Position numbers and translations under genes: made by a program. DNA of 63,228 bases, filler included, from Dugesia japonica (taxonomy: Eukaryota), in NCBI GenBank assembly GCA_001938525.1. It is 6 parts of 6 records of this genome, joined end to end, with 100 filler letters (N's around TTAATTAATTAA, not from the genome) between each part and the next. Parts side by side here need not be neighbours in the genome. Positions count along the whole stretch, not along the records: positions 28,375 to 40,338 come from MQRL01631849.1; 5 more parts are not named here. One strand, given 5' to 3'. Of the stretch, positions 19,435-45,944 are shown in pieces. Under the pieces are notes generated by a model that saw nothing but the letters and a program-made list of their open reading frames with translations, ran no database searches and had not been told where the DNA came from. The first letter of the stretch is position 1; every line of letters starts with the position of its first letter.

Positions 19435-21849
19435 ATGTATATAATTAATATTAAATGAAATATAATTGAAAACGTCGAAGCAGTATTCAAAGAAATTTAT
19501 AATATTAATTAAATTAGATCAATAATTAAAAGATATTAAAAAAATAATATTAAATAAAAATAAAATAAAAGTTATCTCAAGGAACTACAAGCGTGGGGCA
19601 ACCAAAATGAATAATCAAAATGAATAGCTGTTTATACTCTTTGAAAATCAACTGATCCTTAATCAGGTTATTCACATTGTCTCTTCATTATTAACTTTCA
19701 AAAATGAACATGATGAAAAATGGGAACAATCAATTAGTTTAATTAGGAAAAATCCTTTTTAGTTTAAAAATAAGGAACAATCAATAATATTCAACTGACA
19801 AATGTAATTAGGAAAACCCTTTGTAGTTTACATGGTCAATCGTGCTAGTAATTGAANNNNNNNNNNNNNNNNNNNNNNNNNNNNNNNNNNNNNNNNNNNN
19901 TTAATTAATTAANNNNNNNNNNNNNNNNNNNNNNNNNNNNNNNNNNNNNNNNNNNNTGAGGGATTTTCACAGATGTCTGATTAGATAGCGAATAGTCAAG
20001 CAGTTGACAGTTTTAAATAGAACGTGCGTAGATTAAATATTGATTATGTTAAATAGATATACCACATTTAAAATTAACGTATTATATAGATTAGTAAATA
20101 TGAAAATGTACATATAATGTTAAAAGTTTTGAGATTAACATCATAAATAAAACCAAATACTTAATTTATTCAACTGATATTTTAACTTGAAACTCTGATC
20201 TTAATTATAATTCGATTGGTACTTAATAAATAATTCCTAGGTACTTTATTGCATATGAATTATTTTGTATGCTTGTAAAAGAAAATGTCCAAGAAAGACA
20301 CGCCGCCAAATTCTTTATATGAAAAATAATTTTCAAATTTTAATAGATGTTTAAGAAGTAATTAATGAAATCTTAACATGAGAAAAATTTAATCGAAAAA
20401 TATGCAGAATTCAGAAAAAGGTTTTCTTTAAATGAAAGATGGGACTGTAACAAAAGAAAACAAGAAATAAATTTTAATCGAGTAAAATTTTTTAAATAAA
20501 TGGTTAAAAGCACTAGGAAATAGTAGAAAACAGATTTATAAATAATATTCTTAGCTTGATAAATTTTGAACTGAACAGCCTGAAAATGTTTTGACCGTTA
20601 AAATTGGTTCTTTAAAAAGATATTTTAATTAATTTAAAAATTTATCCTTGTTAAAAATATTTACCCCTTTAAATAGAATATAACCTTTACTAATCCTTTT
20701 CACTATAAAAAAACAATTAAATTCGATAAATTTAAAATGATATGTTGCTTAAGTTGTAGTTTTCATTTTCAGCTATAATAATGACAAAAGAAGCGTGCCA
20801 TTACTTGGACCGTCAATAAAGAGGATTTTTCACGGATAGGCGAAAAGTTCATTTGTTGCTTGACATGTAATAAAAAATCTTTAATTCAATTTTCAGTAAA
20901 TTAAAAATTTAATTCTATTTTTCCGATATATAATAAAAAAGTCTTATTATAAGTTTATATTTCATGTAATTGTTTTATAATTAAAATTGATGAATAATAT
21001 TGATACTTTTATAATTTAATAAATTATTTTATAGATAAATTCATCTTAAATATATTGTCATTTTAGCAAGAACATAGTTCTGATGGTAACGAGCAGTTTA
21101 TAATAACTGGATAATAAAATTAATTTTAAATAATTTAATGAATACGGCGGACTGGTTTTTTCATGGATTAAATTCATAAATCCAACCACATAATTTTAAA
21201 ATTCAGTTTTTAAATAAAAAAAAGCATCTGATGTTAATGCAATCATGAATTCATAGATCTGAATAAGTGATTTTAAACAATACTGACTCTTAGTAAAATC
21301 GTAGATTACAATCAAATTGCGTAACAGCTGTTGGATACATTTGCTATTTTAAAAATAAAATTTAAAAAGTTTTAACTAAATGGAAAACATGATTATTGAT
21401 GAGCATCCAAAATTGCTTAAAATCGTAATTTCACTCAATTGATAACATAAGTATCTCTGGATTTTGGAATAGAACTTTAATTTTTGCTATAGCCTGTGCT
21501 CGTGTTTTAATTGACCATTTATTTATTTAGATGAAAAATTCAAATCTTCATCAGGATGATCCACGCAGTTGAATTTTGAGCCAATATCAATCACAAATCA
21601 AAGGATTATAAAAAAAAATTATTAAAATGGGACACCATTTTTTATTGCAATTCATATTGTTACACCTTATTGAAATACTTAAATTGAAAAAACAGGAATT
21701 CTATTTTAAATTTTATATTAGCTAAAAGTAAATAACATTTTGTAAATGAAAAAGCAAGAAAAATGAAATCATAGAAAGGAGAGAAATAATTGTTTAGACT
21801 TTAATTGTTAAAAAGTGATTGTTAACATAGAAATTTTTTTTTGATTGGA

Positions 21850-22880: not shown

Positions 22881-24189
22881 AACAGAAAGATAATGCATTT
22901 GATGATTTAATAAACAATTTTATATTTTCTTTTTTTCTTTTTTCCCAACAAATCTATAAAATCTTTGAATTCATTCATTACATTGTTTTGAAGGATGGTA
23001 AATTTTTCTTAATTATTTTTTACGTCCAGTGCTATTTTCATTACAATTGCTCGAATACGTCTAAGAATACATACCTCTAATATATACTGAATATTTTTGT
23101 AATGGAACTACTAAATTGATCCCAATTCGATACGAAATATTTGTTTTGAAAGATTTTGAATTTATTAGTTTCTATTGAAAAAACTTATTTAATTTTCATA
23201 ATATCGATCAAATCATCGTTTTTAAAGTCTTGATATTAACTAATGGAATATGTATCTATTTTATGCTTCAAAATATTAAATCAAAATCTTTTGGTATCTT
23301 TTAAATTTTCAAATATTATAAAATAATCATGATGTTTTAAAGTGATTAACAAGCTCTTATATCAATTAATTCAAAATCAACATCATGAACCATCAATATT
23401 TTATTCTTCATTATTGATAATAATTTTTACATTCATTTTATATTCTTCACCGGGGATACTTATGCAAGAACTATCATTACTATAGAAATTAACTATTAGT
23501 CTAGGTCCCAGTTATATTTACCAAGGAGTGTGCTTATAATTATTGGGAGTACGGTAACTACAAGACGCAGCGCGGTCGACGAATTATCATAAGCCATACA
23601 TATAATCAAAGTGGGTATAATAAATGAAAGAACTAGAACGAAAGAAATGGATGTATATATACGTTAAAAGAGGCAAGTTATTGACTGAATTCTGTTTTCA
23701 GGTAGAAGTGAGGGGAGCGGTAAGAATAACATTAATAGCGCAAATAATGACAACTACGAGAAATAATAATAATAACAAAGGAATAGTTAAAGTTGAGGAT
23801 TAACAATAATAAGCTTACACAATACGTGGTAGTGATAATAATTAATAGCGATATATAACTAAAGTGAACAGAGTTATTAATGACGTTGATAATAAGGGTA
23901 ACGTATGAGTATGACTTAATGCCAACACTGATCCATGATTATAAAAATGAAAATCATCATTGTGATGNAGTATGAACCAAAGGCTTGATTTTTACCCGAC
24001 TCACAAAATTATAACTATGGACGATGAGGTAAGGTTGCTAGTATTATTAGCCAGAAATAGTTGTACGATTAAAATTTCAAAAACGCTGTCACCATTGTCA
24101 ATGAATAATAAAGCAATAAGGGTTAAGTGTGCTTCATAAATTAAAACGAGTATTATTGAATTGAAAACCAGAACCAAAGTAATATGAGC

Positions 24190-24355
24190 ATACACTCGAA
24201 CTACAGGTTACAAATCACCGGCTCCAATCGGAAAATCTAAAAATGGAACACTAGATTCTTCGCGGAGTTTATATAAGCTATGTCACCCTAGATATAAATT
24301 AAAATTGAGCTACCTCGATGGAATCCCAACAAATACAAAAAATGGATTGGGACAC
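24190..24355 (-). repeat. Dispersed repeat/LTR-like end (paralogue at ~38670-38825)
   Basis: Collinear blocks AACTAC(A/G)GGTT, CACTAGATT, AAAATTGAGCT(A/G)CCT and GGAA(T/C)CCCAACAAAT shared with 38670-38825. Reads TGTTGGG on the minus strand. Confidence 0.65.
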
Positions 24356-25310
24356 CACATCTAGTTGTTCGCACGCTAGACACTATAGTAAAATGATTAA
24401 GCTTGGATTGACCCGAGTAATTTATTTTCTTTTTCTAAATTTGTACTTTTATTTATTTCTGGTTTACATCTTTTTTGTGGATTAGTTATGATTTCAGCTA
24501 TTATCTTTTCAGCTACCTTTTTGCGTAATTTTTTATGGCTTGCGTTTTTCCAGTTTCTGATTTCTTCATTGCAGTTTGGTCGTTTTAATTTACCTTTTTT
24601 CTTCGAATTTATTAAGTATTTTTGATAATTTATTCTTGACTTTCTTAAATTCATTCAATTATTCACTTCATTAATTTCTTCGATTTTAAGTTTTAAACTT
24701 GTTGAACCAAGTTTAAGATTTACACAATAAGCTAATATTTAGTTTAAACTAACTGTTATCTGTCATGCGTCACTGACTAAAAATTCTTTGAGCAAAATTC
24801 AAAGAAATTAACCATCATCATCTAAAAACAGGTTGTGCGATTGATTATGATGTATCCTGTTACCACATGGTAACTTTTCTCTTTACGAAAGTAATTTGTT
24901 TAAATGGTTTTTGCTGAGCCATTTAAAATCAATTGACTTTTCTGACTGTTAATATAGGTAGAATAATTTAAAAGATTTATAATTATACGAATTGCAGACA
25001 ATACTTAAATAACATCAACACTAAATCATAATTAACTTAAAACACAAATAGTTCGTAAGCATATTATATATTAAAAGTTTTATACAATTGATTAACTCAT
25101 TATGTCATAACAGTGAATTACATCATTTAAATTAATAAAGTAATAACATTTTTGTTAAAAAATCAAATTTAGTATGAAAGTAAATTTTAGTTTATATATT
25201 CTTTTAATTATAAACCTTTGTTTTAAAGTATAAAATAATAATCTCTGTAAAAGTCGATATTTCTATTTAATTTATTTTTCTTAATAATTATTGAAAGTTT
25301 CTTGTAATCT

Positions 25311-26255
25311 ATGGTGTGTTCTACTGAAGTTTACCAATGGTTTAAAGAATTGTCTCCTTTTAATCGAATTGATTTTTTATGTAGTATTATGCAACTTTGT
25401 TTACCTAACGAATTGCGATTTATTGGAACACTTTTGGATGATATGAATAATAAGGATTATGCGAATCTACGTGAAGCAGAAGATCGATCAAATAGTCCTA
25501 ACGAATTTAGACAATATCCTACAATGCCTCTCAATGAAGAAGGTGTTCGTAGATTATGCCTTAGTCTTTCATTATTAAAATCAACTAATCAAAAAGTTGG
25601 ACAAATTATTTATGAGATTTTAAAAATCCATTTTACTTATGCAAATGAATGTGTAAAATTGAAAGACAAATTTAGTAATGAGGTATTATTACTTTATGCT
25701 TTAGCAAGCTATCATCCGGCATTTACGTTTGAAAATCGATTTAAAATTGGTGAACAATTTAAAATTTTGCAATCAATTTACGAAGATTCTACTGAAGAAT
25801 TTTCTAACAATAATAATTCGTGTTGTTATAAAGATATCAACAAAAATAGTTTTTTAAATATTAACATAAAAAGTGTTATACTTGAACATCTTGATGCTAA
25901 TATAATATTAGAAATATCATCTGATAACCCCCAGAATTCTAATATAGAAAAAGTGACGACATTTTCTAAAATAATCGAATTATTTAAAGAAATTAAATAT
26001 TTTCATTCTGATTTATTTTCTACTTTGCACTTGGAAATTAGTGATATAACTAAAAATGGAAATTTTAACACTAATAACATTCGATGTATTTGTCAAAAAA
26101 TCATTAAGTTTTTAAACTCAAATAGTGATGAGGATAATCAATTTATCAAAAAATTTTTCCTGCAGTTGCCAGTTTATCATAAAAAAACCAATTCTAATAG
26201 TTCGCAAGTTGAAAGTATGTTATTTAATCGAATTAATATGTTGCACTATTTTTGA
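25311..26255 (+). CDS. ZCCHC14: ZCCHC14/ZCCHC2-like (GLS-1 family) protein, N-terminal exon; probable donor at 26215
   Basis: EVYQWFKELSPFNRIDFLCSIMQLCLPNELRFIGTLLDD...KDYANLREAE and LASYHPAFTFE match the conserved N-terminal region of ZCCHC14/ZCCHC2. AA|GTATGT donor just before the stop. Downstream exons not identified. Confidence 0.8.
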   Translation: MVCSTEVYQWFKELSPFNRIDFLCSIMQLCLPNELRFIGTLLDDMNNKDYANLREAEDRSNSPNEFRQYPTMPLNEEGVRRLCLSLSLLKSTNQKVGQIIYEILKIHFTYANECVKLKDKFSNEVLLLYALASYHPAFTFENRFKIGEQFKILQSIYEDSTEEFSNNNNSCCYKDINKNSFLNINIKSVILEHLDANIILEISSDNPQNSNIEKVTTFSKIIELFKEIKYFHSDLFSTLHLEISDITKNGNFNTNNIRCICQKIIKFLNSNSDEDNQFIKKFFLQLPVYHKKTNSNSSQVESMLFNRINMLHYF

Positions 26256-26652
26256 AAAACTTATATAATAAATTTAACTTATATGTATCAAATACTAAAA
26301 TTAAGTTATAGGCATTGCAAAAATTACAGCACGAAAATAATTAAAATGAGATAACTTTAAGTTTATAAATTAATAAAAACTCGGGACATTTGTTGACATT
26401 CGTATCGCAGAAACCTTTAAAGTACTGTTTAATAGCATGGTTATGTAAAATCTTTCATAAACAATAATAACAATTGATGAAAGTAAACGACAAAACAAGC
26501 CTGGCTGACACTAAAGAGAAATTTTCATTATCAAATTAAAATTTTGTCTTGATACTTTTATTTTAACTCAGTAAAGCTGTTAGAAAAACTTGATTGTGTG
26601 GAAATTCTATGTAAATGTATTAGTTCACAACACAATGCATATTTTTATAGGT

Positions 26653-26896
26653 TAGAGTTGCACAACCTTTTTAGGCCAAGGGCCAAATTGAGCATTAGTA
26701 GTTTCTTGTCACCCATCTCTGTATTATTTATAGGTATTTGCTTATTTGGAATTAGCCATATGGATGAGTATCTAAAGCAGTAATACATGATTTCTATATC
26801 GAACAGTTTTTTGAGGTGTTACAATTTTCCCGAGGGCTGGTAAAAACACTTTGGCATGCCAAATCCGGCTTGCAGGCCGCGGGTTGTGCACCCCTG
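26653..26896. mobile_element. hAT (Buster/Charlie-type) MITE
   Basis: Imperfect TIRs TAGAGTTGCACAACC / GGTTGTGCACCCCTG. Flanked by 8-bp TA-centred near-duplications TTATAGGT / ATATAGGC. Confidence 0.75.
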
Positions 26897-27758
26897 ATAT
26901 AGGCTATACCGGAAATTATATTATTTCATGTGTGATGACGAGGGTTATCTTGTATCTCGTACAATATTGGTCCCGCTAAGTTTTGAAAATATGATTACAT
27001 GTTGAGAAATCGAGAAATGTTACGGAATCCACACATTCATTGGGCTCAAATAGTTCATAGTAATTGTGACAACAGTAATAATATCAGAAATTTAAAAAAT
27101 AACGTGTTTTTTTTTGGGGTATAGCCTATACATTCAAATTCTATTTATCTAATTAGATAGAATACTATATCTGTTGGCATATGATTTATTTTGATATATT
27201 ATAGTTATCATTCTAATTTTTATTTAGTTGAATTATAAATGGTTGAATAAAACTTTGAAAAATAACAATATTAGTAAAGTGTAATCANNNNNNNNNNNNN
27301 NNNNNNNNNNNNNNNNNNNNNNNNNNNNNNNNNNNNNATCCGGCTTGCAGGCCGCGGGTTGTGCACCCCTGATATAGGCTATACCGGAAATTATATTATT
27401 TCATGTGTGATTACGAGGGTTATCTTGTATCTCGTACAATATTGGTTCCGCTAAGTTTTGAAAATATGATTACACGTTGAGAAATCGAGAAATGTTACGG
27501 AATCCACACATTCATTGCGCTCAAATAGTTCATAGTAATTGTGAGAACAGTAATAATATCAGAAATTTAAAAAATAACGTGTTTTTTGGGTATAGCCTAT
27601 ACATTCAAATTCTATTTATCTAATTAGATAGAATACTATATCTGTTGGCATATGCTTTATTTTGATATATTATAGTTATCATTTTAATTTTTATTTAGTT
27701 GAATTATAAATGGTTGAATAAAACTTTGAAAAATAACAATATTAGTAAAGTGTAATCA
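26863..27758 (+). repeat. Near-identical ~420-bp duplication on either side of an N gap (26863-27287 vs 27338-27758)
   Basis: Only a few substitutions or indels, and the copies abut the gap. Probably unmerged haplotype or contig overlap. Confidence 0.85.
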
Positions 27759-29532
27759 ATTAGTATTTTGATTTATAAAACAAATTTATTCTTGGAAAAG
27801 TAAAATCTATTAATATATTTTATTTCACCAATCAAAATGAAGTCCATTTAAAATTTTTATTTGCATCACTTCGGTATTTTACTTTTGATAATTTTTATGT
27901 TTTCCTAATTTTTTTTACTAATATTTAATATTATTTTTATTTATTATGTAACAATGGCTGTCAGCCAACTTTTACAAATTATTTATTTCATTCTTATTTT
28001 ATTTGGAATTGGCAGTTTTTTCATGAAGCTAAACAAAATTTGTAAGACTTTATCGTGTATTAAAAATAGGTCGCAGAAAAAGTATTACGTGTACAAATAT
28101 GACTCCGGCTTTTCTCAGTAAAAAACACGTTTTTTTAAAGGTTTTATTTTAAATAGGTTGCATTTGAAGCTACAAGCTTTGTCCAACGAATAAATTCTGC
28201 GAAAAAAGAATTCAGAATATTTTGAAGCAGTTCAGCTATCTGCAAAATTTCGAAGTTCTTCACCGGAACTGAAANNNNNNNNNNNNNNNNNNNNNNNNNN
28301 NNNNNNNNNNNNNNNNNNTTAATTAATTAANNNNNNNNNNNNNNNNNNNNNNNNNNNNNNNNNNNNNNNNNNNNATTTTACAAGGACGAAGAATTATATT
28401 ACCAAAAGTAAATTTTGCATTTTATTAATCTTTAATCTTCATTAATTATTCTTCATTACTGAAAAACAAATTTTTTATGATCCGAGTACGCCAGAAAACA
28501 AATGATCGAGTTCCCGATTAAATAATCTGAATTACGAAATCGCTTTGGTAAAATNNNNNNNNNNNNNNNNNNNNNNNNNNNNNNNNNNNNNNNNNNNNNN
28601 NNNNNNNNNNNNNNNNNNNNNNNNNNNNNNNNNNNNNNNNNNNNNNNNNNNNNNNNNNNNNNNNNNNNNNNNNNNNNNNNNNNNNNNNNNNNNNNNNNNN
28701 NNNNNNNNNNNNNNNNNNNNNNNNNNNNNNNNNNNNNNNNNNNNNNNNNNNNNNNNNNNNNNNNNNNNNNNNNNNNNNNNNNNNNNNNNNNNNNNNNNNN
28801 NNNNNNNNNNNNNNNNNNNAAAATGATCATACCAGCTGTTGCATAAAAAGAAAAATTAAAGAAAATCAATGTCATAGAAACTTAATGCAATTTGTAAAAA
28901 GATCACAACAGAGGGTGAAAGTGAAAGAGTTAGAGAAATGAATGTTTGAAGTGGAAAATTGCTAGTGAATATCGTTCCGAGAAAGCTGTTGTAAACTGAG
29001 AATTAGTGTGAAAATTTATTCAAAAATTAAATACCTGGGAGCTCGATTATGGCACCAAATTATCACTTAATGAGCCCTTCTTTATGATGCCGTATATGAT
29101 TTTTTATAATTTCATTAAAATATTACATTTTTATATTTATACTGGTTATTCATTTTATTAAATCTATATCTTTTCTATTAGTCGTACAGTTTAATAGAAT
29201 AAGATGAGCTAATTACTACTTTTTGAAGTAATCAAATAATGGATGACCTATCACCAATAAACTTCACTTACGATAGAGTGAATATAGNNNNNTTTTTATG
29301 TATATTTACATTCTAAATTCAACCATTAGTTAGGGAAGTCTTGAGAGGGCTTCCGAGTAGCAAAGACCAGAGAAGCTGGCTGCATTAGTGGACATCCTCT
29401 CTGATCTGTGTTTTAGAAGCGGGGAATCAGAACAGATAGGCTGCATGCCAAAGAGACGGATAATTTATCATTATGCTGTTTTGTTAATTTATCAAATAAG
29501 GATTTATTATTTTAGCTTTTATTTGTTCACAG

Positions 29533-29955
29533 ATGCATAATTTTAAGCCATATGAAAGCAACGAAAGACAGAAAGAGGGCAATAGCGTCTACATAGATGA
29601 GGATGGACTATTCTATGTGAAGTGGTCGGAAGTGCAATCAATGCTGAGACGAGAAATAGAAAATTTTGGAATGGATGTCATGAATGTGCGGGCAAATTGA
29701 TAAACATTCCAGCTTCAAATGACGATCAAGGACACCAACTATCTGCTGTCCGACTATCAAAGGAAATGCGATCAGAGGATTGCTGGGGAAGAGTCCTCGG
29801 TGTTGCCGGATTCTAAAATTAGCTCTACACTGAAAATCACCAACGTACGAACAGTAGTGGAATCAGTGGACGACGAGATAGAAGCCGAGGAGTTTCGGAT
29901 AATTAAACAATTGATGGAACTGCGAGAAATCACCTCTGTGGATTTTTCCGAATAA
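29533..29955 (+). pseudogene. Orphan reading frame of 141 codons with two adjacent in-frame stops
   Basis: MHNFKPYESNERQKEGNSVYIDEDGLFYVKWSEVQSMLRREIENFG...RAN** continues in frame into ORF 29719-29955. Higher GC than the flanks. AATAAA overlaps the stop. Confidence 0.5.
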
Positions 29956-30254
29956 AATAAATGTTTATAGTGTTGAGATGTGGTCACTTCCTTTTGTTTG
30001 GCGATAGTAATGTGATATATATGTCACATTGCCGAATTATTTTGATTTTTTTAATGATTATGAGCTGCAGAGGCGACGAGGGATTTAGTGACAATTTTAA
30101 ATTAATTTAAGTAAATAAGAATTTTGCTTTTATTCCTAGAAGTGTTGGAGAGTATAATCCATGTGTCTAAAATTAATTGGTAATAACTTGGATGATAATT
30201 ATCTTAATAAATTTTTTTTATTATTATGCGTTTATCATTGTAAGATTATTTTAG

Positions 30255-30578
30255 TGAATAAATCGAATGTGACCACGGAAACCAAAAAGGAACTATTGAC
30301 CGCGCAGAGGCGATGTAAGAAGGAACGAAAAGAGTTAAAAAAATGAAATTCTGAGCCTGAAGGGACAGGTGATGAAGTCCGCAGCGAAATACAACCAGAT
30401 TAAAGAAAAAGAGCTGTCCCTTCAGCACGCGAATAGGTTCATGGCGGACGTCATCAAGACATACACCGACAGAGAAAGTTCCATATTTGTCTCTTTATGG
30501 ACGCTATTGTTGAATTATCGCACGACAGCAGATGAAACGGTTGGAGAAACTACTACCGTGAATTAAGATGCAGATTAG
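30255..30578 (+). pseudogene. Orphan coiled-coil gene family A, copy 1 (terminal exon, frameshifted)
   Basis: Acceptor TTTTAG|TG at 30255, then NKSNVTTETKKELLTAQRRCKKERKELK/NEILSLKGQVMKSAAKYNQIKEKELSLQHANRFM. Frameshift in the A-run near 30340. Collinear with 32681-32952. Confidence 0.7.
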
Positions 30579-30652
30579 ATGAATCTACGAGACCTGTCAA
30601 TAGGAAAATAAATGTTAATAATAATTTTTTTTTAAATTATGGTGTAAAATTT

Positions 30653-30812
30653 TTACTGAGCATAATAAGAGTTATTGCTGTCAGGGTTCAGAAAATCTAG
30701 TGAGTAAGACGCGATACCACAAAGTCGCACTGAACCCGTGGAAAAGAGGGCTATGTCACAGAGGTGAGACAAAGGCTTATGGTTTTTAGGTATGCCCCTA
30801 GATTGGTCGATG
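30653..30812 (+). other. Conserved structured non-coding module, copy 1
   Basis: Inverted paralogue of 32388-32547. Contains GGGTTCAG/CTGAACCC, GCGA/TCGC and TCAC-AGAG-GTGA stems. Confidence 0.75.
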
Positions 30813-30905
30813 AAATTTTAAATAGGCAAATGAAACTGGAAAGAGAAGAGAATAANNNNNNNNNNNNNNNNNNNNNNNNNNNNNNNNNNNNNNNNNNNNN
30901 NNNNN

Positions 30906-30938
<33 letters not shown>

Positions 30939-30975
30939 GTTATTATTATTATTATTGTTATTATTATTATTATTT
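30906..30975. repeat. (ATT)n microsatellite
   Basis: Near-perfect ATT run next to an N gap. Confidence 0.97.
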
Positions 30976-32387
30976 TATTTATATATGTTTTACAATTTAA
31001 TTAAATTTTTTATTCAATTAAATTTTGTGGAGCTTGATTATTTAACTTGGATAAATTTTTGAAAAATGGCAAAATAAGTATTGAGTTTATTATCAAATAT
31101 TTTAATCATATCAATCATATTAATTAATTACTATTACTAAAAAAATTTTACCAATTAATTTGAAATATTAAATGTATACTTTCAATTAAATCAGCAAAAT
31201 TACTAAAATTATCATTTTTATTCGAATATTAAATTTTTGTTTAAATTAACGTCAATGTCTTTGTAACATTTATTATGTAAACATTTCAATCTAATCATTA
31301 AGATGGATATATTCCTTATATATTTTTTAATACTTTATCATATAAACAAAATTAATCCCTAACCCATAAAACTATAATAAATTTAAATAATGAAAGCATA
31401 ATTTCTTAATGAAACTATTCATTAAATTGTAAATTAAATATATTGTTTGATTTTTTTCAAATAAATGTATTTAATAGTCTGTTTCAATTTAAATAAAATT
31501 TTATAATTAAAGATGAGAATATTATTTTTTTCCTATTAATTATCAGCATTTCCCCTGATTTTGATATTTAATAAATTTTAGTGTGAACGGCTCAAGTTGA
31601 CCGTGAGCAATTCTATCTGGTTTACATTGTAAAATGAAAGGAAATCTTCGTTAATGTATTACAATATTTTTTGTTTCAAACAAAAATTCAACTGTTAACT
31701 TGATCACGTTAAATTTTTTCCTTTCAACACAATGTTGGGTTTCATATTTCTACAACATGCTACGGGAAACGGTCAATGTGTTTGCTAAATTTTGCCATTT
31801 CAATTGATGCTCAATTGAAATTATTACCGGAAACACTGCTGGTCAAATTGGGTGTTTTTTTTTCTCGTTTAAATAAAGGTTACTTTAGAGATAGAAAATT
31901 CCCGTGAACTTTAACATGTACAATTTTTTTTAAATATTTCATGTTTAATTTTGATTCATTAATAATTACATAAATGGAATACTTTTCTTTTTTTTATTAT
32001 GTACAATATAAAATAAAGAAAGAAATGATTTTTTGAAATAATATTGAAATATATTGGTTTGTTAAAATTTTTTTTTATCTATTTGAAATTTTAATTACTT
32101 AAATTTTGCTATTATTCAAAATGTTTAAATTGGATTATTTCGAATTAAAATGATTTTAAAAGAAGTGAAATAATAATTATAAAAAACTCGAAATTGACAG
32201 TGTGATTATTAAATTACCTGAATAATAGCTATATAAACTAGAAGTGTTATAAAAAGAAATTTATAAAAAATAACATTTATTTAAAATAACATAAATTATA
32301 TATATGTTGGGTTTTTAGGATTTGATGTTTTAAATTTTATCTACAAATTTTCTGATAACACTTTTAATAATTAATAATTAATAAATC

Positions 32388-32547
32388 CATCGATGTATCT
32401 AGGGGCATACCTAAAAACCACAAGTATTTATGTCACCTCTGTGACATGCCCCTCTCTTACCACGGGTTCAGCGCGACTTTGCGGTATCGCGTCTTACTCA
32501 TTGGAATTCTGAACTCAGACAGCAATAACTCTCACATGCTCAGTAAT
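32388..32547 (-). other. Conserved structured non-coding module, copy 2
   Basis: The minus strand has GAGTTCAG...CTGAACCC, CGCGA...TCGCG, and AGGGGCAT...ATGCCCCT enclosing a TGTCAC-AGAG-GTGACA hairpin. Confidence 0.75.
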
Positions 32548-32680
32548 TCATGGTACTATTGGCTTTAGTTACAATTATGTTGACATTAAGCATTAATTCA
32601 CAAAATGCTAAGCAAATTACGACCAGAAAAATATCAAAATAATTCAACTAATGGTAGCTAACATTTATTTATGCAATATA

Positions 32681-32952
32681 CTAAGAGTCCAAATCCACAG
32701 GTACGCCATTCTCCTCAACCTCCGCCGGCGTGGATCGGTAGTTCAACGTAGCATACGTTTTTACCATGAGTCTATTAGCGAGTTGCAGTGACAGTTCCTT
32801 CTCTTTGAGTTGATCATATTTAGCAGTCGGTTTCACCATCTGCTCCTTCAATCTTAATACTTCGTTTCGGAGTTCCCTACGATTCTCCTTCCATCGACTC
32901 TGCATTGTGAGCACCTTCTTTCATGGTATAGTTTCTTCATTAATTTTATTCA
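32681..32952 (-). pseudogene. Orphan coiled-coil gene family A, copy 2
   Basis: Acceptor TTTCAG|TG at 32952, then NKINEETIP*KKVLTMQSRWKENRRELRNEVLRLKEQMVKPTAKYDQLKEKELSLQLANRLM. Homologous to 30255-30578. Confidence 0.7.
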
Positions 32953-33229
32953 CTGAAATATTAAAGTCAATTATAATTATCACAACAAAATTCAAGGTTA
33001 TATACATAAATTTGATTTAAAATCATTCTAAATATGGTATCTTAATATTGTATTTAAATATTGTATTTAAATAAAAATCAACTGAATTACGATATTGCTT
33101 CTGCAATCCCCCAAGACAAATAGTTCAAAATTGTGACATACATATCACTTCACGCCTCAACCCAACGAACTAAAATTTAATTATTATAAATTACATTGAT
33201 ATAATGTTTATCTTTTTTTAATTAATAAT

Positions 33230-34620
33230 TGTTCATGTTTCTTCCAGTGAGGTGTGGAAATGTACCCTGTTGCTAGTGTTTTCATGTTATATGATGTTGC
33301 TCTGATGAAATTTTATGTTTGTATGTTGAAAATGTTTTAACACTGAACTTTCTTTTTTCTTGAGATTTCCTTAATTCTAGTTTGAATGGTTCTGCATGTT
33401 TCTTTACAAATGGTTCATGTTATTTTATAAGTGATATTTTGCTTATGGCATATATTTCTATGATAATAAATACATTTGGGACTACAAAAGCCTTGTTGTG
33501 GTTTCTGCAATTAGATGACCAACAGTTTTTGTTTTGAATATTATCATTGGATCGTGCTTGAGTTTAGAATTTTTTTTATTTTGCATAGTTTGGCTACATT
33601 TCTCATTGATAAAAGATAATTTAATTACTTTGTTTGTTTTAAGTTTGATTTTATTAAATTTTCTATTGGAAGATAAATATTTTGATATAATTTTATTTGG
33701 AAATTTGTTATTTAAGAATTGATTTTTATTAACTTCAGAAAAATCAATTTCATTTCTTCATTTGAAGATAATTTCTCAGCTCTTATTCTTTTACCAATTT
33801 TTTGCGGGAAGATAGTATTATTACTCCAAGGTAATACATGTCCACTGTGAAATCGTTTCATATATAATTGAAATATTTTGGATTTAAGTATCAAGAAAAT
33901 GAATCTAAAAGTCATTTGACTCCTCTAAAGTTAATTGCATATTATTGGCTAATTCAAAAATGTTCTCTAAAGGCGAATTAATAACAAAGAAAATATCGTC
34001 TATGTATCTAAATTTTCTTGTTTGCTTTAAGAATCATTGAATTTTCAATAAAATTCATGAAAATTATCATTAGAATTGGAAATAAATTGTTACCCATTGC
34101 AAGACCACCTTTTTGTTCAAAAGTTTGTTAATCGATAAAAGTGCTATCAGAGAAGAGACACAAATTAATAAGACATTTGAAATCATTTTTAATGATCTCC
34201 TGAATATCTGTATGTTCTTTATATCTTTCATTTTCAGGTACTTAAATGGGAATTGATCCATATCGATTTGTTACATCTACTAATTCATCATCACTCTTCC
34301 AGTTATAATTTTTGATTCGTTTGATAAATTCGTAGCTATTCTTTCAATGTGCCGGAAAGAAACTTAATAGTGATTTTAATATATCTATCATGAGTTGAAA
34401 TAATACAGTTGAAAGAGTTTCGGAAGTATTGACAATAGATTTTCCTTTGAATGGTTTAGGAAAATAGTACATTTTACTGTTAAAAGTAAAGATTTTATTG
34501 GGTCTTCATATTTTTCCTCTATTTGAATTAATAGTTTATTAAATTTAATTTCATCTATAGTTGGTAGTCGTTTGTGTGCTGTTGTTTCATAATTGAAAAG
34601 CATATATAGAAAAGCATTAG
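33230..34620 (-). mobile_element. Decayed Penelope-like retroelement (RT and possible C-terminal nuclease region)
   Basis: Minus-strand GLAMG (~34095), RYIDDI (~34000) and a PLE-like thumb segment FL(D)LKSKIFQLYMKRFHSGHVLPWS. Heavily disrupted; boundaries approximate. Confidence 0.7.
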
Positions 34621-34789
34621 GAATTCAATTGAGCTTAAAGTCAAATTAAAATAAAAATAATTTTTCCATAGAAAAAGAGAACTATTAAATTAAAATAAGT
34701 TTATGACAATAATTTCTGAATTCAAAAGTTACATGTGTGCTTAAAGGAAATGAACCAACTGATACTGAATACAAGACTCACAGTTTAGT

Positions 34790-37700
34790 CTACTTAACAT
34801 ATCAGAATTACTATGAAGAACACCTTTCTGATATTCTAAAATTATGTCTAAACTACTTAAAAAGTTTATCCACGTCTGAAACTATGCAGTGATTGCCTCT
34901 TTTTATTCAACATAAATGTAATAGCTTTAAAATCTGGCCTTAAAACAAATCTTCTACCATACAAATAATGATTAAAATGAATGCAAAAATAACAGCACTA
35001 CCAGCAGTAGTGCAATAACCCCTCTCGTATTCGAAATCGAATGCGAACCGTAGGCAATCACCATTTCCTTTCCATCCTTACCTAGCTGTGCTCCACTGCT
35101 CCAATTGGGTCGAAACTTGAGTCCGTTCATGATAAATTCTTTCTCCAAATCTGGGAAACCTAAAATTGGCGTAGATGTTAAAGCCATCTTGAGTCCTTCA
35201 AAGATTTCTGTCAATTCTTCTGACAATATTAATTTTGTGTTTCCTGATCAACTGCAAAACTGCTCCAATTTTCTAGCCTTCTCCATATATTCTTTGATAA
35301 ACTTCCTGTAGTAGTTGCAAATGCCTAAAAAAACTACGGAGTCTCTTAACACACTAAGGTTTTTCAAACGACTTAATCACTTCTATCTTAGCTGGATCCG
35401 TCTTAATAATATGTCCTCTGATAATATGTTCTAAATGTTTTATCTCTTTTTGTAAGAAAAACATTTTTCTGAAATTATTCACAAACCCGTTTAAAAAATC
35501 TTTGTCAATATCTTTTTAATCATTTGATAATGTACCTTCTTATTCTTTGAAAATATCAATATATCGTCAATACTCCTTCTAGTCCTCCAATTACTTTCAC
35601 CATCATTTCTTGAATCGTCCCTAGAGCTGCCGCTATGCCAAAAGGCACCCTATTAAAGCAATATTGACTTTACTTTTTGAAAAAGCTGTGTTTTTACAAT
35701 GTGACTCTGTCTCTAATTCTACTTAGTAATACCCAAGTCAATTGAACTAAAATAAGCTCCTCAATCCAGAGTATCTAACATTTCTTCAATATTTGGCATA
35801 TGAAATGCTTGCCGTTATATTATCGCATTCAACCTCCTGAAGTCTAAACACAATCTTATATTCTTTATATTCTTCTTCCAAATACAAACTAATGAAGTGT
35901 TCCATGGCAAATTGCATTTTCTAATGATAACGTTCTCAAACAAATTTCTGATGGCCTCATCAACTTTTCCTTCCATATTCATAGGCTGTCTATATGGTTT
36001 CATATTAATTGGACCACCTTTCATCACGATTCTATGCTTAACCACATACATTTTCCCTACATCCCACTAATTCGGCATAAATACAGTCACTTTGTTCCTG
36101 TATATCTCTTCCAACCACATATTCCCACTCCAATTTATACTGTTATATACTTTTTCAGACATTTGCTTTCACTAACCTGCCTGCCAAAATTTGCCTCTAA
36201 ATTACGAATATAGTTTATTCCTTCACTTCCTATTTGGATATGTTCTTTTTAAATCAAATAAAACCCAAAAGTATCTAAAAATTCCATTCCTCCTATCGTA
36301 CTTGGAGAAACTCGACTCACCACTACAAAAGTTACCCACTTGGTCTTATCACCTAACTCAACTTCTAACTTTGCCCTCAGCTGTTTCCAACTCACTGTCA
36401 TTCACGCAATGCAATTTTACCACACACTCCTCTAACTGCTTAATTCCTAATTTTTTTCAACAGTCTAAATTTACATTTATTCTTGCACCAGTATCAAGAA
36501 GACACTTCTTCCTCTTTCCATTTATTTGTACACTCAATGGTTGCTCATTTTCTTCCAAAGCATTTATTGAATCCGAAATCACTTACTTCTTGAACGACTT
36601 TCCTCTCATAAATCTAAAAGCTTTCTCACCTATCATTTACACATCTTCCAAACTTTCCACCTCCTGAAGATATTATGTAGAACTGTCCTTTAATATATGG
36701 CTCCAACTAGCTCCTCTACTGTGGAAGCCCTCTCTTTTGGGTAAAATTTCTTTTTTCCAAACTTTTTAAGTCCTCCTCTTCATTCTGACTTATTTCTTCC
36801 TCCAGTGCATTCAATAGTCTATATCTATTATCTCGAGTCCTCCATCTAAAAATGTCTCTCATCTGATCTTCGATTAACATGATGAGTTCTATCGAGTGCT
36901 ATATCATAATTTCCTTTATTTTCGTATCTGCTCATACATTTCTTTCACTCCCGACTAATATGACCCCTTCGCCTTCACCGAAAATATTGTACCTGCTGTC
37001 TCACTGGACAGTTTCTACTGACATGTCCTTCTAATATAGATGTCAAATATTTTATTGCCCGTCTTTAAGGACAATCCCACTTTATATGACCTACTCTATT
37101 GCATTCCCAACCCACCCCAACAGACCACATTAGCGAAATTTTGCACCACATTAACTGAACCCTCCCTGTTCTCTACTTTATCTAATAATCTCATGGTTTC
37201 CTTAATATCTTCCACGTTTTCCACTTTGCGTAATAGAATTTTTTCTCTTTTAATCCCTGAACTTTGCTGGAAATTTTTATCGCGAAAATTCTTTTTTGAA
37301 AACAAATTGCTTGCTACTTCCTCTACCTTATTCATATAAATTTCAATATCTTCATTATCACATCTATATTCTAAAGCATTTTGGATATCTTTTAAAACAC
37401 TCCGCTTCTTATCAAATTCTAATCTTAGGCGATCCTGAAAACCATATACTTTTTTAAAAGTTTTAATATATTTTCCAATAATAACTTCATCAATCAAACA
37501 AATAACTAACCTTCCTGGCTCCTTCTTATTTAAGATACCCTTTACTTCAAAGTATATCTCACATTTTTTAATAAACTTTTCGAAGTCATCATTTCACCGA
37601 AAAATGTCTGGTAGCATCCTATTTGTAAGAGCATCGGTGTTAATCCCTACCACCATGTTAGGAGTAATATCAACAACAGCATTATTATTCGTTTCTAAAA

Positions 37701-37870
37701 GTTTATTCATGATAAATACAATAGATCTTCTCTTCTTAAAAAATTTCTTGATTCTGAATACTAAAATCCTGAAAAAATTCTAAATTACAAAATTATAAAA
37801 ATAAAAGATGGCTAAACGATGATTGCAATATGTTAAAAGAGACTAAAATGAAATAAAAGATGGCTAAAAT
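34790..37870 (-). mobile_element. Decayed Ty3/Gypsy element (5' LTR, gag, protease, RT, RNase H; integrase and 3' LTR missing)
   Basis: LTR end ...TAACA followed by PBS-like TGGTGGTAGGG at 37655. Gag knuckle remnant GHVSRNCP (~37020), protease LLDTGA (~36495), RT RLCLDFRRLN (~35840), RNase H IAYGSH (~35050). Outer LTR boundary not determined. Confidence 0.9.
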
Positions 37871-39129
37871 TAACTAAATGATTACTAAAAATGGACAAAA
37901 TGTAATTTTAATTTAATTTTAAGTAAATTTTTAATTGAAATATAAGAACATTACTATATAAATGAATTAAAAGATGTCTAAAGGTTCTATTTTTAATTGT
38001 CAGAATATGGTTAAGGTTCCATTAAATTTGACAAAAAAATCTGATAAATGATGACTAAAATGTGTTATATGTCTGATGAAAGATGAAAAGACTTGTCTTA
38101 TATATTCTAATTAATTAATTAAATCAAAATAAAGGCGCAATCATCGATAATTATTTCTATTAATGTGCGATTTACAGTTGTACTAAGAATACCGTATTAT
38201 CAACTAACGCGCGCAATAATCGTGTGAATGCAATCAGTAATCGCCCACCAATGGCTGCCCAAGATCTGATTATGCTAGCATACAGGATTAATTCTTTATT
38301 GCGGGCATAAGACTCGATCATTCGCCGTGTATATCAGTTATTCATCGCATATGCACATATAGACATAATTAATTCAATGAAGGTAAACTATATGCTTGAT
38401 TGATTGAACGAGAACCCATATGACAGAATGTTTGTAATATGCACAATCGCTGCAGCGAAAATGTGGAAGGTTCACTTTTATTAAGTAAATTAATTATTTC
38501 AAAAAATTCTATTAATTAATTATAAAAAAAATTAATAAGTAATTAAATAAAAATTAAGTCAAAATTCAAATTTAAAAATTGTGCCAAATTCAAAACAAAC
38601 AATTTAATTAATTTTTTTTCTTATACAGGTAATATGAAAGATGAAAACCCGAACTAAAGGAATACGATCATGTACACAAACTACGGGTTGCGAGTCACTG
38701 GCTCTATTCCAAAGATCTAGCTCAAGGACACTAGATTTAATTCTTTTTAGGATTTTACTAAGTCATCTTACCCTATGAAATCCAATAAAATTGAGCTGCC
38801 TAAAAGGAACCCCAACAAATTTAAAATTTTTTCCACTGGTAATTTGTACTACATAAGGATAAACTAAAAATGACTAATTTATTTTTCAGGTTGTTTGTGT
38901 CAGTAGTTATATGTTTGTTCTATTTGTTTATTATTTTTAATTCTGTCCTCAAAAGAATAAATTTGTCAAAAATAAAAACATTTCGCAAATTTATATTTTG
39001 ATTCATATCTGTAACAAATTTACAGAAATGAAGAAGCAACAAAAATTATCTTTATTATTAAATTCAAAAATATTTTTTATTTAGAAATAAAATTAAAGTG
39101 CACTATTAAAGACTATAAAAATTTTTTAC

Positions 39130-39385
39130 AATTAGAATTATTGTGAGAATAATTGTTGGACTTAACAATTGATCGTATTTGAGATTTCATTAAATTAAAA
39201 GCTTCGATCAAAATATTGATTTTCTTTTATTATATTTCGAATTTTCGACTTCGCATTCGTCAGAAATTTACTTTTTTAAAAGTCAATTCCTGACGAGGAC
39301 AAAGTCAAAAATTCGAAATATTATTATGAACTATAAAACAATATAGAAAAAAGAAAATGATGAAAGCTTTTAATTTAATGAAATT
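39130..39385. mobile_element. Second full copy of the palindromic hammerhead repeat
   Basis: Same left segment (ACAATT...GAGAATAATTGTTGGAC...AAGCTTCGATCAAAA) and inverted arms. CTGACGA at 39290-39296 (+) and at ~39257-39263 (-). Confidence 0.8.
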
Positions 39386-41717
39386 TTTAAGATTAACATA
39401 AAAACCTTTTGCATGATTGTTTCCTTTAGAGTCATGCAATAAATTAGATGGAAAACACTATCAATTTATAACACTAAATATCTTTTAAATATGTTTTCTT
39501 TTTTTTTATGTCATTACCACCATTCATTTCTATAACAACACTGGAACCGAATGGTTTTTTTTCTTATTTTAAATATGATATTAAATCATACCAAATAAAA
39601 GACTCATGAAAAAAGTAATAAATTGTCTATTTTTTTTATCAACAAAAATGGTTTTTCTTACAGTATTAAATAATTTTTTAAATGAAAAAAAATAAATTTA
39701 AAAATACTAATTTGTTTTTTTCAAAGTAAAAACCGAAGCCTCATTTGTTAGTAGTTGATCAGCAAATTAAATGTGAAATAAAACCTCTAAGAAAGATTCA
39801 CGCTAAGATATTGAATATACTAATTATAATTTCTCTAATAACACATCCTCAATGAAATCTGACCCCCCATCTACGCTTAGAAAACTGAATCAATTCATTG
39901 AAAATCTTTGTCGATTATAAGATATTAAAAAAGATAACTGCTATTACAATGAACTGGCTCAACATGATTTTACCTGTTATCATTTGTTCGGCTACAACAA
40001 GCTCAATTGAAAATCACAGTAACTTGAAGCAATCAATTTACTAGCGTTTTTTTCTACTCTGTGTATACATACATCAGCTCTCCAAACCACCATATACATT
40101 TAATTAGTTCTGATGTACAGATTGATAATATTTTTCTGAACTTTACATGGCATTGAAACCATAAGAGCCACTAATAATATATTGCTATTTGATACTACTA
40201 TTGCGGAGAAATAGCTAATTAGATCTTTACAATCTCCCTTGAGTCTGTAGATTTGAATGAATTGAATCGACACTCTTATATAACTCCCAACTGTGAAACA
40301 AATACTCGCTTACAAAAACAATCTACGGTTCGAGTCAANNNNNNNNNNNNNNNNNNNNNNNNNNNNNNNNNNNNNNNNNNNNTTAATTAATTAANNNNNN
40401 NNNNNNNNNNNNNNNNNNNNNNNNNNNNNNNNNNNNNNCTGACTCATAATCTATTATTTTATTATTTATAATAATCATGATGATTTATTCTAATTTTCCT
40501 CCTATAATTTCTCTTTAAAATATCAAAATATTTTAATTTAATTATTTGTTTTAATATTTCTTTGTCTCTCATCAATATAATTTTATTTTTAACACATGGA
40601 TACATTCAACACATTTATCCAAATTATAAATAATAATAGATATTCCTTGTTCTATTGACATTCTTCTTTTCGATCACTTTGACTTATTTTCTGNNNNNNN
40701 NNNNNNNNNNNNNNNNNNNNNNNNNNNNNNNNNNNNNNNNNNNNNNNNNNNNNNNNNNNNNNNNNNNNNNNNNNNNNNNNNNNNNNNNNNNNNTTTTTAT
40801 TGTGTTACCCTAGATTTTGTTTGATATTTCTTACACTTTTTAACTTCAGTTATTATTATTCAATAATCGTTTCCTAATTATTTCATAGATCAATATTTCT
40901 TTTATTTCTCATTATTTATTTATTATTTTTATTCATTTTCTTATTACTCTTTAGTTTATTTCCTTCTATAATTTTCATATTTTACGAAAGGCATTTTCAG
41001 CCCAACAAAATGATAAAAAATATATATTAACATAATTTTTATAAGTTTAAGATAATAAAGTTTAATTATTCAAAAAATTTATATGCTGTTGTTTAAAGAA
41101 TAAATTTTCAACGTTAAGCTATGCCTTCTTCATGGTAAGCTTAATTTATCTNTATTGGTAATTTCAATGTAAACGAATATAGAAATTCTCAAACTGCAAG
41201 GACATCGGAAAAACGTGATCAAGCGAATTGAAAGAATTTGGGGAAAAGTTGAGCTCTCAGAAGAAAAAAAGTAAACAAATCAAACTTTGGATATTTTCCG
41301 AATCTCAAAATGAGAGAAATAAATGTTGTGAAGTTGAAAATATTGAAAATATTTTATTTAAAGAATTTTCTCTGATAAGAGCTTTCAGAGTTTTGGACAT
41401 CTTTGTTAGTGTTGGGGTGAAACACCCACGTTGAGAAGAAAAAACAAAGCCAGGGGCCCAAATCGTGAAGAAGGAGATTATAAAAAGAGATTACACTTAT
41501 ACGAAAACGGGTGAAAAGATAAATATAGAAAGAAAGCATCAAGTGGGTAAAATAGTGACTAAAATCAAGTTATTAATTAGGAGAATTATAATTATTAAAA
41601 AATAATAAGAAAATGGTTCAGAAAATAATAATTTGATTTTGATTTTTAATATCTGAATTATTTTAGTGTCTCGAATCCAATTACCCCATAGTTTAAGAGG
41701 AAGTCATCGTATAATTC

Positions 41718-42879: not shown

Positions 42880-42975
42880 GGAAATTCAATATTTCGACTT
42901 TGTCTTGGTCAGGAATTAACTTTTTTAAAAAAACTCAAAAAAAAAATTTTCTGATCGAAGCTGTTATTATAAATG
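42880..42975 (-). repeat. Partial copy of the hammerhead repeat
   Basis: Minus strand AAUUC-CUGACCA-AGACAAAGUC-GAAAUAUU-GAAUU (core G8 changed to C). Confidence 0.7.
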
Positions 42976-43122
42976 AATCAAATTTATTATTGAAATAAAT
43001 TAAATTTATGAGTTTGCCTGCAAATTTTGCATTAAAAAAAAAGAAAAAAAATCAATATTTTAAAAAAATTAATGAAAAAAAAACGAAATAAATTCTACAT
43101 TTATATTTTCAAAAATATCATT

Positions 43123-45944
43123 CTAAACATATAAACAATCTTGATCTAATTTTTCTAAAACTTCTTCGTCTTTTATATACGGAGTAAACATTACTGTGGA
43201 TTTCAATTCCGACTGTTCATCGGTGTCTTGTTTCGTTTGAGAGGGAAAACCAAAATTCAAAATATTTTTACGAGGTCTTCCTCGTTTTTTCTGTTCCTCA
43301 TTAATCTGGTTTTCATTTATCACTACGTAAACAATAAGTAAATCAATCACCGAAAACAAAAAAANTTTTTAAAAAAGAAGAAAAAAAATCGTTTAGTCCT
43401 TACAAAATGCTTCTGCAAAATTCTGATAATCTAACTGAGTGCCATCGATTTCTTCATTAGAATACGACCTATCAACTATCGGAACACTATTAACTAATGG
43501 AGTCACGTCAATTTCATCTTTCAGTGAAATCGTTTTTCGAGGTCTTCCACGAGGTTTCTTAACGAACTCATGCGAGTAAATCGGTTCATGTTTTACTGCT
43601 AATTTAAACAAAAAAGAGATTATTATTTACAATTATCAATTTCCATAACACTCAACTCTTACTAGACTCTATTTTCTGATTAGAAGTTTCCCTAAACGAA
43701 TCAAGTATTTCCGAATCGTCGATAATTTTTCGTTTTCGACCGCGTTTTTTCGGTGAAACTTTCACCAAATCGAGTTTTCCGGTTTCATGACGATTAATGT
43801 GACTTCTGATGAGAAGTTCTGTGTTTGCTGTGAAATTACAGTTTTCGTAAGGACAGGAAAACCTCCCGATATTTCCATGAGATTTCCGTGAATTAATCTC
43901 ATCGGCATGATACTCTTGGATGTGCTCATTCAATGTGGAATTTTCATTGAAAATCAATTCACAATATCTACAAACGCTTTTCCTGGCGACTTTAATATCG
44001 TGACATCGGGTAATGTGATGGTTTAATTGATTGTAATGCTCAAATCCCCCGGCATTACAAACCGGACAAGAGATAGACATGTTTTCTTTGTGATCTTTAA
44101 TATGTTTTTTCAATTCGTCAAAATCTTCCAGTAACACATCACACGAGACACACTGGAACATTTTATTCAGTCTCTGATTGCAAACTCTAATATGATTTCT
44201 AATATCGAACAACTTTGTGAATCTCTCATTACAACCTAAACAAACCACTTTCACCTGTAAAATTCAACGAGTAACATGCAATATTAGTAATAATTATTAT
44301 CTACCACAGAGCCGAGCTTTTCAGTAACATGTTCACGTAATTCATGTTCCCTCGTACGCAAGTGGGCCAAATAGATATCGTGAGTCTTAAAACTTTTCTT
44401 ACAAATCTCACAAGAAAACAACTTTTCCGACACATGTCGACTGCGATGGGTTTTCATATTAGCGTTTTGAGTGAATCGTTTATGACAAATGTCACATTCG
44501 AAGGGTTTATCGCCGGTGTGTGCTCGGATATGATGGGCAAAAGTACCACCGTTATTCGTCATGTAATTACAATCCGGTGAGAAATTACAATGAAATTTAT
44601 ATTTATTAGGATCTTTCGGTGGTTTTTTCGGATCGACATGGTCCCGACGTGCGTGTAAAAACAAGTCAGATAATTGTTGGAACATTCCTGGACACTGGCG
44701 ACAAACGAAAACCTTAACATTATGAACGTCTTTGAAATGCTTAGTCAAAGAATTTGCATGGTTAAACTGTTTTAAACAATCGCTTTCAGGACAAACATAA
44801 CGAATTTTTACCTGAAAAATAAAAACAATTTATGAATATATCTTCGTCAATTTGAAAAAAAAATATAGGAATGCCAAAGAAATATTTAATTCTAAATTTT
44901 AATACAAACACTTAACAACAGTGCGTAAATCAAACCGTACTATCCAAAACAAGAACAAATTTTATCAAAATACATTTTTTAAAACTATAATCAGAATTAA
45001 TTTAAAGTATAAATTAATATACAAGATATTAATAAAATAATAACTTAATTATAAGTTTAAATCTAAATTCAAAATGAATTATTTAATGGAAAAAATGTTN
45101 ATAATAAGAATATGAAAATTTAATTAATGATTGTTTTAATAATATATTACCAATAATTCAAATATCAAATCAAATTACTTAATAATTAGTGATAAAAATT
45201 AGTCGTAATAATTTAACAATGAAAAAAACGAAAATATTTTCGTAACATTACTTTAAAATGTATTTCTTTACATACATAGATGCAAAGCGACAAATATTAT
45301 ATTAAAACACTTAATTAATTCATCTAATTCAATTTACTTCCAAATTCATTTATAATTTATTATAATTATTTAAATTAAATGTAAAATTAGTAAATGATTT
45401 TAAAAAAAATTAGTAAATATAGCTGTATTGAAAATCGTCCAAAAATGAAATACAATTGTTTGCAAAACAATAAGTGTTTTATTTACTATTAAGTATCAAT
45501 TTAATATTGTTATTTAAAATCAAATTTAAAAATGATTAATTTATTATAAAATGTTTAGTAATATGAAATACTTACTTCTTCCAAAAAATAATCATTATTA
45601 TGATCAATTGAAACTTTATAATATTTTCCATCTTTCTAATTAGCGATTATATAAATATGATAGTGAGACTCATTAATATACTTCAACGACTTGATTTGCG
45701 TATTTCTCTGGATCTATAGATTCATCAGCATTATACTAATTTAATAAGTAAAGCATTATCTAATTCATAAACTATAACTAACGTCATCGGTTTCTAAATA
45801 ATCTGTTTCAAAATTTTGATCCTAAAAATACACAATAATTAATAAATAATTTATTTCCGAATGAAAACAATTATAAAATATTGAAATATTTTTAATAAAT
45901 TTACATGCCTCGATAAGACTATCTTCTTCAGGATTTTGATACAT
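43123..45944 (-). CDS. Multi-C2H2 zinc-finger protein with C-terminal AT-hook-like motifs; exons 45944-45909, 45821-45783, 45735-45682, 45635-45576, 44811-44305, 44254-43663, 43598-43404, 43322-43123; ~560 aa
   Basis: About ten C2H2 fingers, including an HTGDKPFEC linker. KKRGRKRK, KPRGRPRK and KKRGRPRK motifs. The spliced model is in frame end to end (1683 nt) if the first intron uses a GC donor. The four small 5' exons are less certain. Confidence 0.88.

Follow-up and report, generated by a model that had tools for sequence, protein, structure and literature searches.

Organisation of the locus

The window (the whole 63,228-nt stretch of Dugesia japonica DNA that was analysed) contains two units of the same layout, here called A and B, which face each other on opposite strands. 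In each, a palindrome, an acceptor-like site, a coiled-coil exon, a poly(A) signal and a conserved module follow one another in the same order, as a sequence-only reading of this DNA had described. The palindrome GTGATATRTATGTCACA, located at 30012–30028 (+) in unit A and at 33132–33148 (−) in unit B, is found nowhere else in the window, where 0.01 matches would be expected by chance against the two observed. Its centre is TATA-like, and it is likely to represent a core promoter; outside the unit B palindrome the similarity between A and B fades after about 25 nt. The acceptor-like AG|TGAATAAA (30253–30262 in A, 32954–32945 in B) marks the head of the coiled-coil exon (30255–30578, +, and 32681–32952, −), which is alignable at the protein level, with the same residue in 36 of the 61 codons compared. 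The poly(A) signal AATAAATGTT starts at 30607 (30607–30616, +) and 32660 (32660–32669, −); it occurs 10 times in the window against about 2.5 expected, and three of these occurrences belong to the genes considered here. At the DNA level only the module (30653–30823, +, and 32377–32546, −) matches strongly from A to B (172 columns, 84% identity, E 8e-46); the sequence separating the shared parts does not align.

Disabling lesions are present in both coiled-coil genes: the reading frame of copy A is shifted near 30340 and interrupted by a premature stop at 30564–30566, and copy B has a stop at 32921–32923 and two in-frame deletions. The GC content above that of the surroundings, previously ascribed to the units as a whole, is a property of the exons and modules (0.42–0.44 versus 0.267 for the window), and the promoter and intron parts are at 0.22–0.25. 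The planarian genome is over 70% A/T, according to the part of PMC11410931 drawn on here. The opposed orientation of the units is real, but the supposed convergent pair looks like two separate insertions that form no functional unit.

Copy number and expression

Contigs or reads from four of 24 listed public runs were compared with positions 29293–30855, which cover unit A and its upstream flank. In run X1, a public run of this organism, 2,453 contigs matched, most of them 80–95% alike, and copies were counted at 80% likeness. The single-copy reference was an X1 piece identical to the window, with a depth of 10.2. Summed depth is not copy number, and the fold values given here are orders of magnitude. 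In the exon core (30406–30458) the summed depth was 13,346, about 1,300-fold single copy, and in the module (30671–30776) it was about 83,000–87,000, about 8,000-fold (bins about 8,200–8,500-fold, single places 1,600–22,800-fold). Beyond the core end described below it fell to 2,411 at 30804 (240-fold) and to 126 at 30825 (12-fold). These ratios exclude a two-copy locus. The units had been taken for an orphan pair, with the proviso that only these two copies might exist; by contig depth over unit A and its flank they are two of very many. Copy A differs by 10–16% from its siblings among the X1 pieces listed. Run X9 gave no independent support, having about 3% of the X1 depth, the same pattern and an exact-match piece.

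The RNA runs yielded 260 reads (X14, from about a quarter of the run) and 12 reads (X13). None of the X14 reads matched at 99% likeness and 97% of them continue into unlike sequence; therefore, they come from other copies located inside other transcripts. The module is read on both strands in RNA, and the exon is covered at low depth by reads from other copies.

The coiled-coil gene

The comparison of substitutions between the copies, which had been proposed as a check, indicates purifying selection: in 61 codon pairs pS is 0.93 and pN is 0.23 (Fisher p 1e-14), and third codon positions carry 37 of the 68 differences between the A and B exons. The coiled-coil gene was therefore functional over a long period in each lineage. 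An intact relative, P0002 (112 aa), was the one match for the B exon among 1.84 billion representative proteins (66% identity over the matched stretch, E 3e-14). It is a singleton on a 554-nt ENA contig. In a tblastn comparison it matched copy A at 68% over 82 aa and 42% over 40 aa, and its identity to the copy B exon was 50% over 108 columns. Relative to copy A and P0002, 3 and 13 codons are missing from the copy B exon.

As had been stated before, no protein family was recognised, and the searches found no family, fold or Rfam match. A search of 5.8 billion proteins with the B exon gave no candidate, and host proteins are absent from the exact-match protein collection. A three-row profile of the exon returned P0002 alone among 188 candidates, Pfam and PHROGs gave sub-threshold matches only (best PHROGs E 0.006), and protein-pattern scans of viral and metagenome contigs found no match. 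The sole prokaryote match to the protein pattern, L001, was dismissed, since it spans 10 residues of an unrelated 234-aa protein of secreted type and was put down to chance. The ESM Atlas offered generic coiled coils. The predicted model of P0002 is one long helix (pLDDT 80). The coiled-coil protein is thus modelled as a single long helix, and it is probably a dimerising helper or regulator.

The gene is likely to contain an intron. In unit B the putative intron (32953–33090, −) has a canonical donor (33090–33089) and acceptor (32954–32953), 138 nt apart. In unit A (30080–30254, +; acceptor 30253–30254) the donor is degenerate, and at its position the bulk of the sibling contig depth departs from copy A; sibling pieces show 13–19 gaps across the unit A promoter and intron. 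Two observations count against splicing: an in-frame ATG lies 31 and 18 codons upstream of the exon in the two copies with no intervening stop, and the start of P0002 is five residues ahead of the shared VNK. Of the 11 joints listed, none came from RNA, at low read depth. The description of the genes as spliced is plausible.

The gene upstream of unit A

The repeated DNA does not begin at 30000, where unit A had been thought to start, but continues upstream to at least 29293. A second, decayed gene lies at 29293–29955 (+, GC 0.41), with probable exons at about 29361–29459 and 29534–29955. It ends in AATAAATGTT at 29956, the same signal as in both coiled-coil genes. Summed contig depth over this gene is 73–671 versus about 10 for single copy (7–66-fold), and depth exceeds single copy in all 30 bins of the region compared, so the gene belongs to the repeat. 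The sibling pieces in 29517–29813 are gap-free.

Searches with Pfam and PHROGs found no protein family for the upstream gene. When it was read through its lesions with X, none of three protein candidates was upheld, and the best PDB match had an E of 0.5. Foldseek and VIA-align found nothing with its predicted model (best Z 2.9), but the model is poor (pLDDT 43) and this blank says nothing about the fold.

The terminal module and its ends

Many copies end at 30802, and the high-copy part of the module is a core of 98 nt (30705–30802 in A, 32398–32495 in B). Behind 30802, loose ends were seen in 40 X1 contigs and 55 X14 RNA reads, with mixed sequence beyond (18 of the 490 loose-end rows are listed, and agreement in the flank was 0.52 and 0.63). 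In one RNA run, X14, 47 and 18 of the reads listed have their match starting at 30705 and 30706, respectively, and carry mixed sequence ahead of it. Agreement on the inner side of 30705 was 0.46 and 0.54, close to that of unrelated AT-rich flanks. This suggests a free-standing form of about 98 nt, 30705–30802. At least five contigs end at 30824 instead of 30802, and A and B are identical at 14 of 22 nt beyond 30802; thus, the long forms may end anywhere in 30802–30824. The extra 52 nt of the module on the inner side of the core are identical between A and B at 43 places.

Seven of the 12 indels listed (of 31) fall in 30669–30770 and all are of 1 nt, whereas the sibling pieces over the coding parts are gap-free. 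This indicates that the module is non-coding. An antisense frame of 65 aa without stops runs across module B; it was rejected as coding, given no Pfam match, stops in A and 1-nt indels in siblings. Synonymous sites of the exon are saturated and the module is only 16% different, about as much as copy A is from its siblings, so the diverged lineages shared nearly the same terminus at insertion. Such a terminus would be a cis-acting end read by a shared enzyme, a transposase.

The module had been called structured, and this holds for copy B. As RNA, the B module folds better than shuffled sequences (z −2.67, 2 of 200 shuffles as good), and as DNA its last 98 nt reach z −3.6 and −3.8 (none of 200 shuffles as good). 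Copy A folds no better than its shuffles (z 0.02 and −0.34). At the stem places broken in A (30729, 30751, 30752 and 30768), most depth differs from A and matches B; two sequences alone are no real test of covariation. The copy B core contains an inverted pair (32401–32408 and 32446–32453) of 8 perfect nt, or 11 nt with two mismatches, located 3 nt from one core end and 42 nt from the other, and hairpins at 32430–32447 and 32471–32492. The half-site ATGTCAC is an arm of the palindrome and recurs in a module hairpin. It occurs 10 times in the window versus about 5 expected, and five of these occurrences are in units A and B. This count is no more than suggestive.

Rfam gave no module match at E ≤ 10, none at gathering level in the window and none near the modules in 29000–34200. 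No inverted mate of either module copy was found in the 63-kb window with nhmmer or a 19-nt fuzzy search, and the window has many gaps. No tail, and no poly(A) tail in particular, follows the module end in the two window copies; in both units the poly(A) signal is before the module and not after it. In other copies the majority letters behind 30802 are A-rich. The longest repeat common to the flanks of unit B has 6 AT-rich nt. The majority letters outside both core ends (30705 and 30802) are CATAAAAAA, which could be a target duplication, a tandem linker or an A-rich artefact. A segment of about 180 nt present in two copies with 70% identity (24162–24340 and 38642–38826) was examined as a module relative and found to be unrelated.

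Origin and mobilisation of the family

The great number of dispersed copies, the sharp end that they share, the lesions and the purifying selection acting on the exon agree with the earlier suggestion that the units are remnants of a mobile element. Very probably, A and B are decayed copies of the same end of a mobile-element family that is very abundant. The explanation that accounts best for the data, adopted tentatively and at slightly less than an even chance, is that the units represent the end of a non-TIR DNA transposon of the rolling-circle, Helitron-like kind, together with its accessory genes. A and B would be two independent decayed insertions of one element end, with the module of about 170 nt as the cis-acting terminus. 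The coiled-coil gene and the upstream gene would be the element's own accessory genes, each with a promoter, a probable intron and a poly(A) signal. A Rep/helicase encoded elsewhere would drive rolling-circle transposition, nicking the outer module end (A|TC on the minus strand of copy A, and the same in B) and peeling off one strand. A stop at the first hairpin would give the form of about 98 nt, and read-through would give long forms with genes.

The fold depth, the sharp end at 30802, the nearly identical end found in long-diverged lineages, the agreement of most depth with copy B at the stem places broken in A, the lack of a module mate in 63 kb, the position of the poly(A) signal before the module and the lack of a poly(A) tail after the end speak for rolling-circle transposition. 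A stem-loop near the 3′ end is present (hairpin 32471–32492 in B, at the same place in A). Against it, both window copies are long, though by depth the short core is the prevalent form; the gradient in depth may be due to conservation and not to truncation. Neither a RepHel nor any other transposase was found by protein searches in the units or next to them. In both copies the letter after CTAG (30798–30801 in A, and the corresponding position in B) is A instead of T, and family similarity runs at least to 30802, past CTAG. On the opposite strand both window copies have A|TC. The commonest letter outside 30802 among the listed loose ends would give G|TC, which is biased because reads matching copy A extend further. 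A T-run flanks one side of the core only, the other side being other than T in both copies. The family may work like a Helitron-like element, but it is not filed here as a member, because CTRR|T and T|T fail, the inverted pair is short and no RepHel is in view.

Among known systems, HLE2 elements (HINE, DINE-1), as described in the sections of PMC4067079 and PMC11417382 used here, resemble the units in several respects. There is no target duplication evident in the window copy tested, the ends have a short inverted pair (a few nt inside one of them and about 42 nt inside the other), a hairpin is near that end with a T-run outside it, copy number is very high and ends are common to diverged families. 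In mite HINEs the inverted pair is 2–4 and 38–60 nt from the ends (PMC4067079, same section), so the positions of the B pair at 3 and 42 nt come close to this geometry. The differences, within the same sections, are an inverted pair of 11–18 nt in HLE2 versus 8 perfect nt in the units, a hairpin 8–35 nt from the end versus 3–4 nt from the apparent end, and T|T at the insertion site versus a T-run on one side only. The long forms of the units carry selected accessory genes and no RepHel was seen, unlike HLE2.

Canonical Helitrons (HLE1), in the portions of PMC11417382 and PMC4778049 available, share with the units CTAG after hairpins (+) or A|TC (−), found in both copies, and length-variable derivatives with one common end. 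The units differ from them in that CTAG lacks the following T and RepHel is not seen; A|TC is known from the window copies only. Helraiser requires its TC end but can bypass the hairpin end (excerpt of PMC4778049). The modelled mechanism resembles it in starting at the TC end with variable stops.

An unlikely alternative is that the module is one TIR of a multi-gene cut-and-paste transposon or a Polinton-like element; the short copies would then be MITE arms that differ in their interiors. Accessory genes with introns and promoters of their own are in keeping with large DNA transposons. They fit Polintons in particular (PMC6431247, as excerpted), the mixed sequence inside 30705 could be MITE interiors, and the many gaps of the window could hide mate modules. 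Neither copy, however, has a mate module within the window, and the agreement inside 30705 is near that of unrelated flanks. The ends of A and B face each other and therefore cannot be two TIRs of one element.

Equally unlikely is an RNA-mediated origin, in which the module would form the structured 3′ end of a unit that is SINE-like or mobilised by Penelope, or else the end of a long LTR. Unit B starts within about 30 nt of the apparent end of an RT/GIY-YIG remnant on the same strand (by eye), which we take to be Penelope-like from its motifs. Depth rises toward the module end, and CATAAAAAA outside both core ends may represent a target duplication or a tail, and with it the core would have an LTR-like CA end. 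On the other hand, no hammerhead or other Rfam match was found near the modules at E ≤ 10, unit A has a different gene upstream, the poly(A) signal precedes the module, and a second Penelope-like remnant has no unit behind it. The remnant beside unit B has 26–28% GC and almost no CpG, versus 43% GC in the unit B exon, and is without Pfam or tblastx support. Penelope-like Terminons, in the available text of PMC6431247, are similar in their accessory coiled-coil ORFs and structured 3′ end, and unit B adjoins the Penelope-like remnant. The units differ from Terminons as described there, with no hammerhead, no telomeric repeat and no constant RT link.

It is rather improbable that the family represents a class outside the described Helitron groups. 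This would be non-TIR mobile DNA with a shared hairpin terminus, its own spliced orphan genes, a minimal element of about 98 nt in thousands of copies and the ATGTCAC half-site in both promoter and terminus. An element protein could then couple expression to transposition through ATGTCAC. If no known transposase goes with the family, it would point to an undescribed mobilising enzyme. If the family is Helitron-like, it is an abundant repeat with accessory genes kept under selection, unlike the usual cargo of captured host fragments, and two orphan proteins gain a testable role. The literature search, which covered papers and not Repbase or Dfam, found nothing describing the family, and the GGTATGCCCCTAG motif was in no paper. 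The family may already be catalogued in Repbase, Dfam or the repeat libraries of planarian genome papers. If it is in Repbase or Dfam, the gain is small and consists of the selection result and the anatomy of the ends.

The earlier suggestion of an endogenous DNA virus found no support, the two genes giving no Rep, helicase, polymerase or capsid match. That the units are relics of an integrated animal DNA virus or virus-like element of the PIVE or DENSOV_HM type, with the module as hairpin telomere or origin, is improbable. Compact genes, a common promoter and terminator form, GC above that of the host and the lack of a cellular homologue speak for it. Such integrated repeats exist in planarian and Hydra genomes and resemble the units as dispersed, decayed repeats in AT-rich invertebrate genomes (available part of PMC3198968). 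They are defined there, however, by NS1/Rep-like helicase ORFs and TIRs, neither of which was seen in the units. There was no PHROGs match (best E 0.006), the best BFVD match had an E of 0.36 with the pLDDT 43 model, viral contigs gave no match, and a family of thousands of copies with a free short core is easier to reconcile with a transposon. The DNA patterns of the units had no matches in viral, metagenome or prokaryote contigs, and blastn against phages gave none.

A lineage-specific host coiled-coil gene family, behind whose common ancestor an unrelated short repeat was inserted, would suit the purifying selection, the one intact relative P0002 and the low-depth RNA reads on the exon from other copies, but it is highly improbable given the depth of about 1,300-fold in the exon core, the lesions of both copies, the conservation of the extra 52 nt inside the core (43 identical) and a module 84% identical while synonymous sites are saturated, which a single ancient insertion cannot give.

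Other elements in the window

The decayed RT and GIY-YIG remnant that ends within about 30 nt of the unit B start lies at 33170–34960 (−), as recognised by eye. The second Penelope-like remnant, at 55400–56830 (+), has clearer RT and GIY-YIG motifs by eye and no module behind it. A short hAT-like element with imperfect inverted ends was noted by eye at 26645–27758. The segment 26863–27287 is repeated at 27338–27758 with 97% identity across a gap, possibly an assembly artefact. Decayed Gypsy-like elements, classed by eye, are located at 1343–3338, 14725–19434 and 34972–37783, and the LTRs of the second (14725–14938 and 19225–19434) are 86% identical. A MITE-like dispersed repeat with internal inverted segments has at least six partial copies (13062–13322, 39114–39382, 42883–43009, 51535–51630, 61347–61457 and 62443–62538).

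Five 100-base gaps with a central 12-nt AT palindrome (11133–11232, 19857–19956, 28275–28374, 40339–40438 and 49190–49289) are assembly linkers and not biology. The host genes of the window encode a ubiquinol-cytochrome c chaperone of UQCC1 type (11411–11815, E 2.9e-11), a Vts1-domain protein (25308–26255, E 1.5e-17) and a C2H2 zinc-finger protein (43652–44829).
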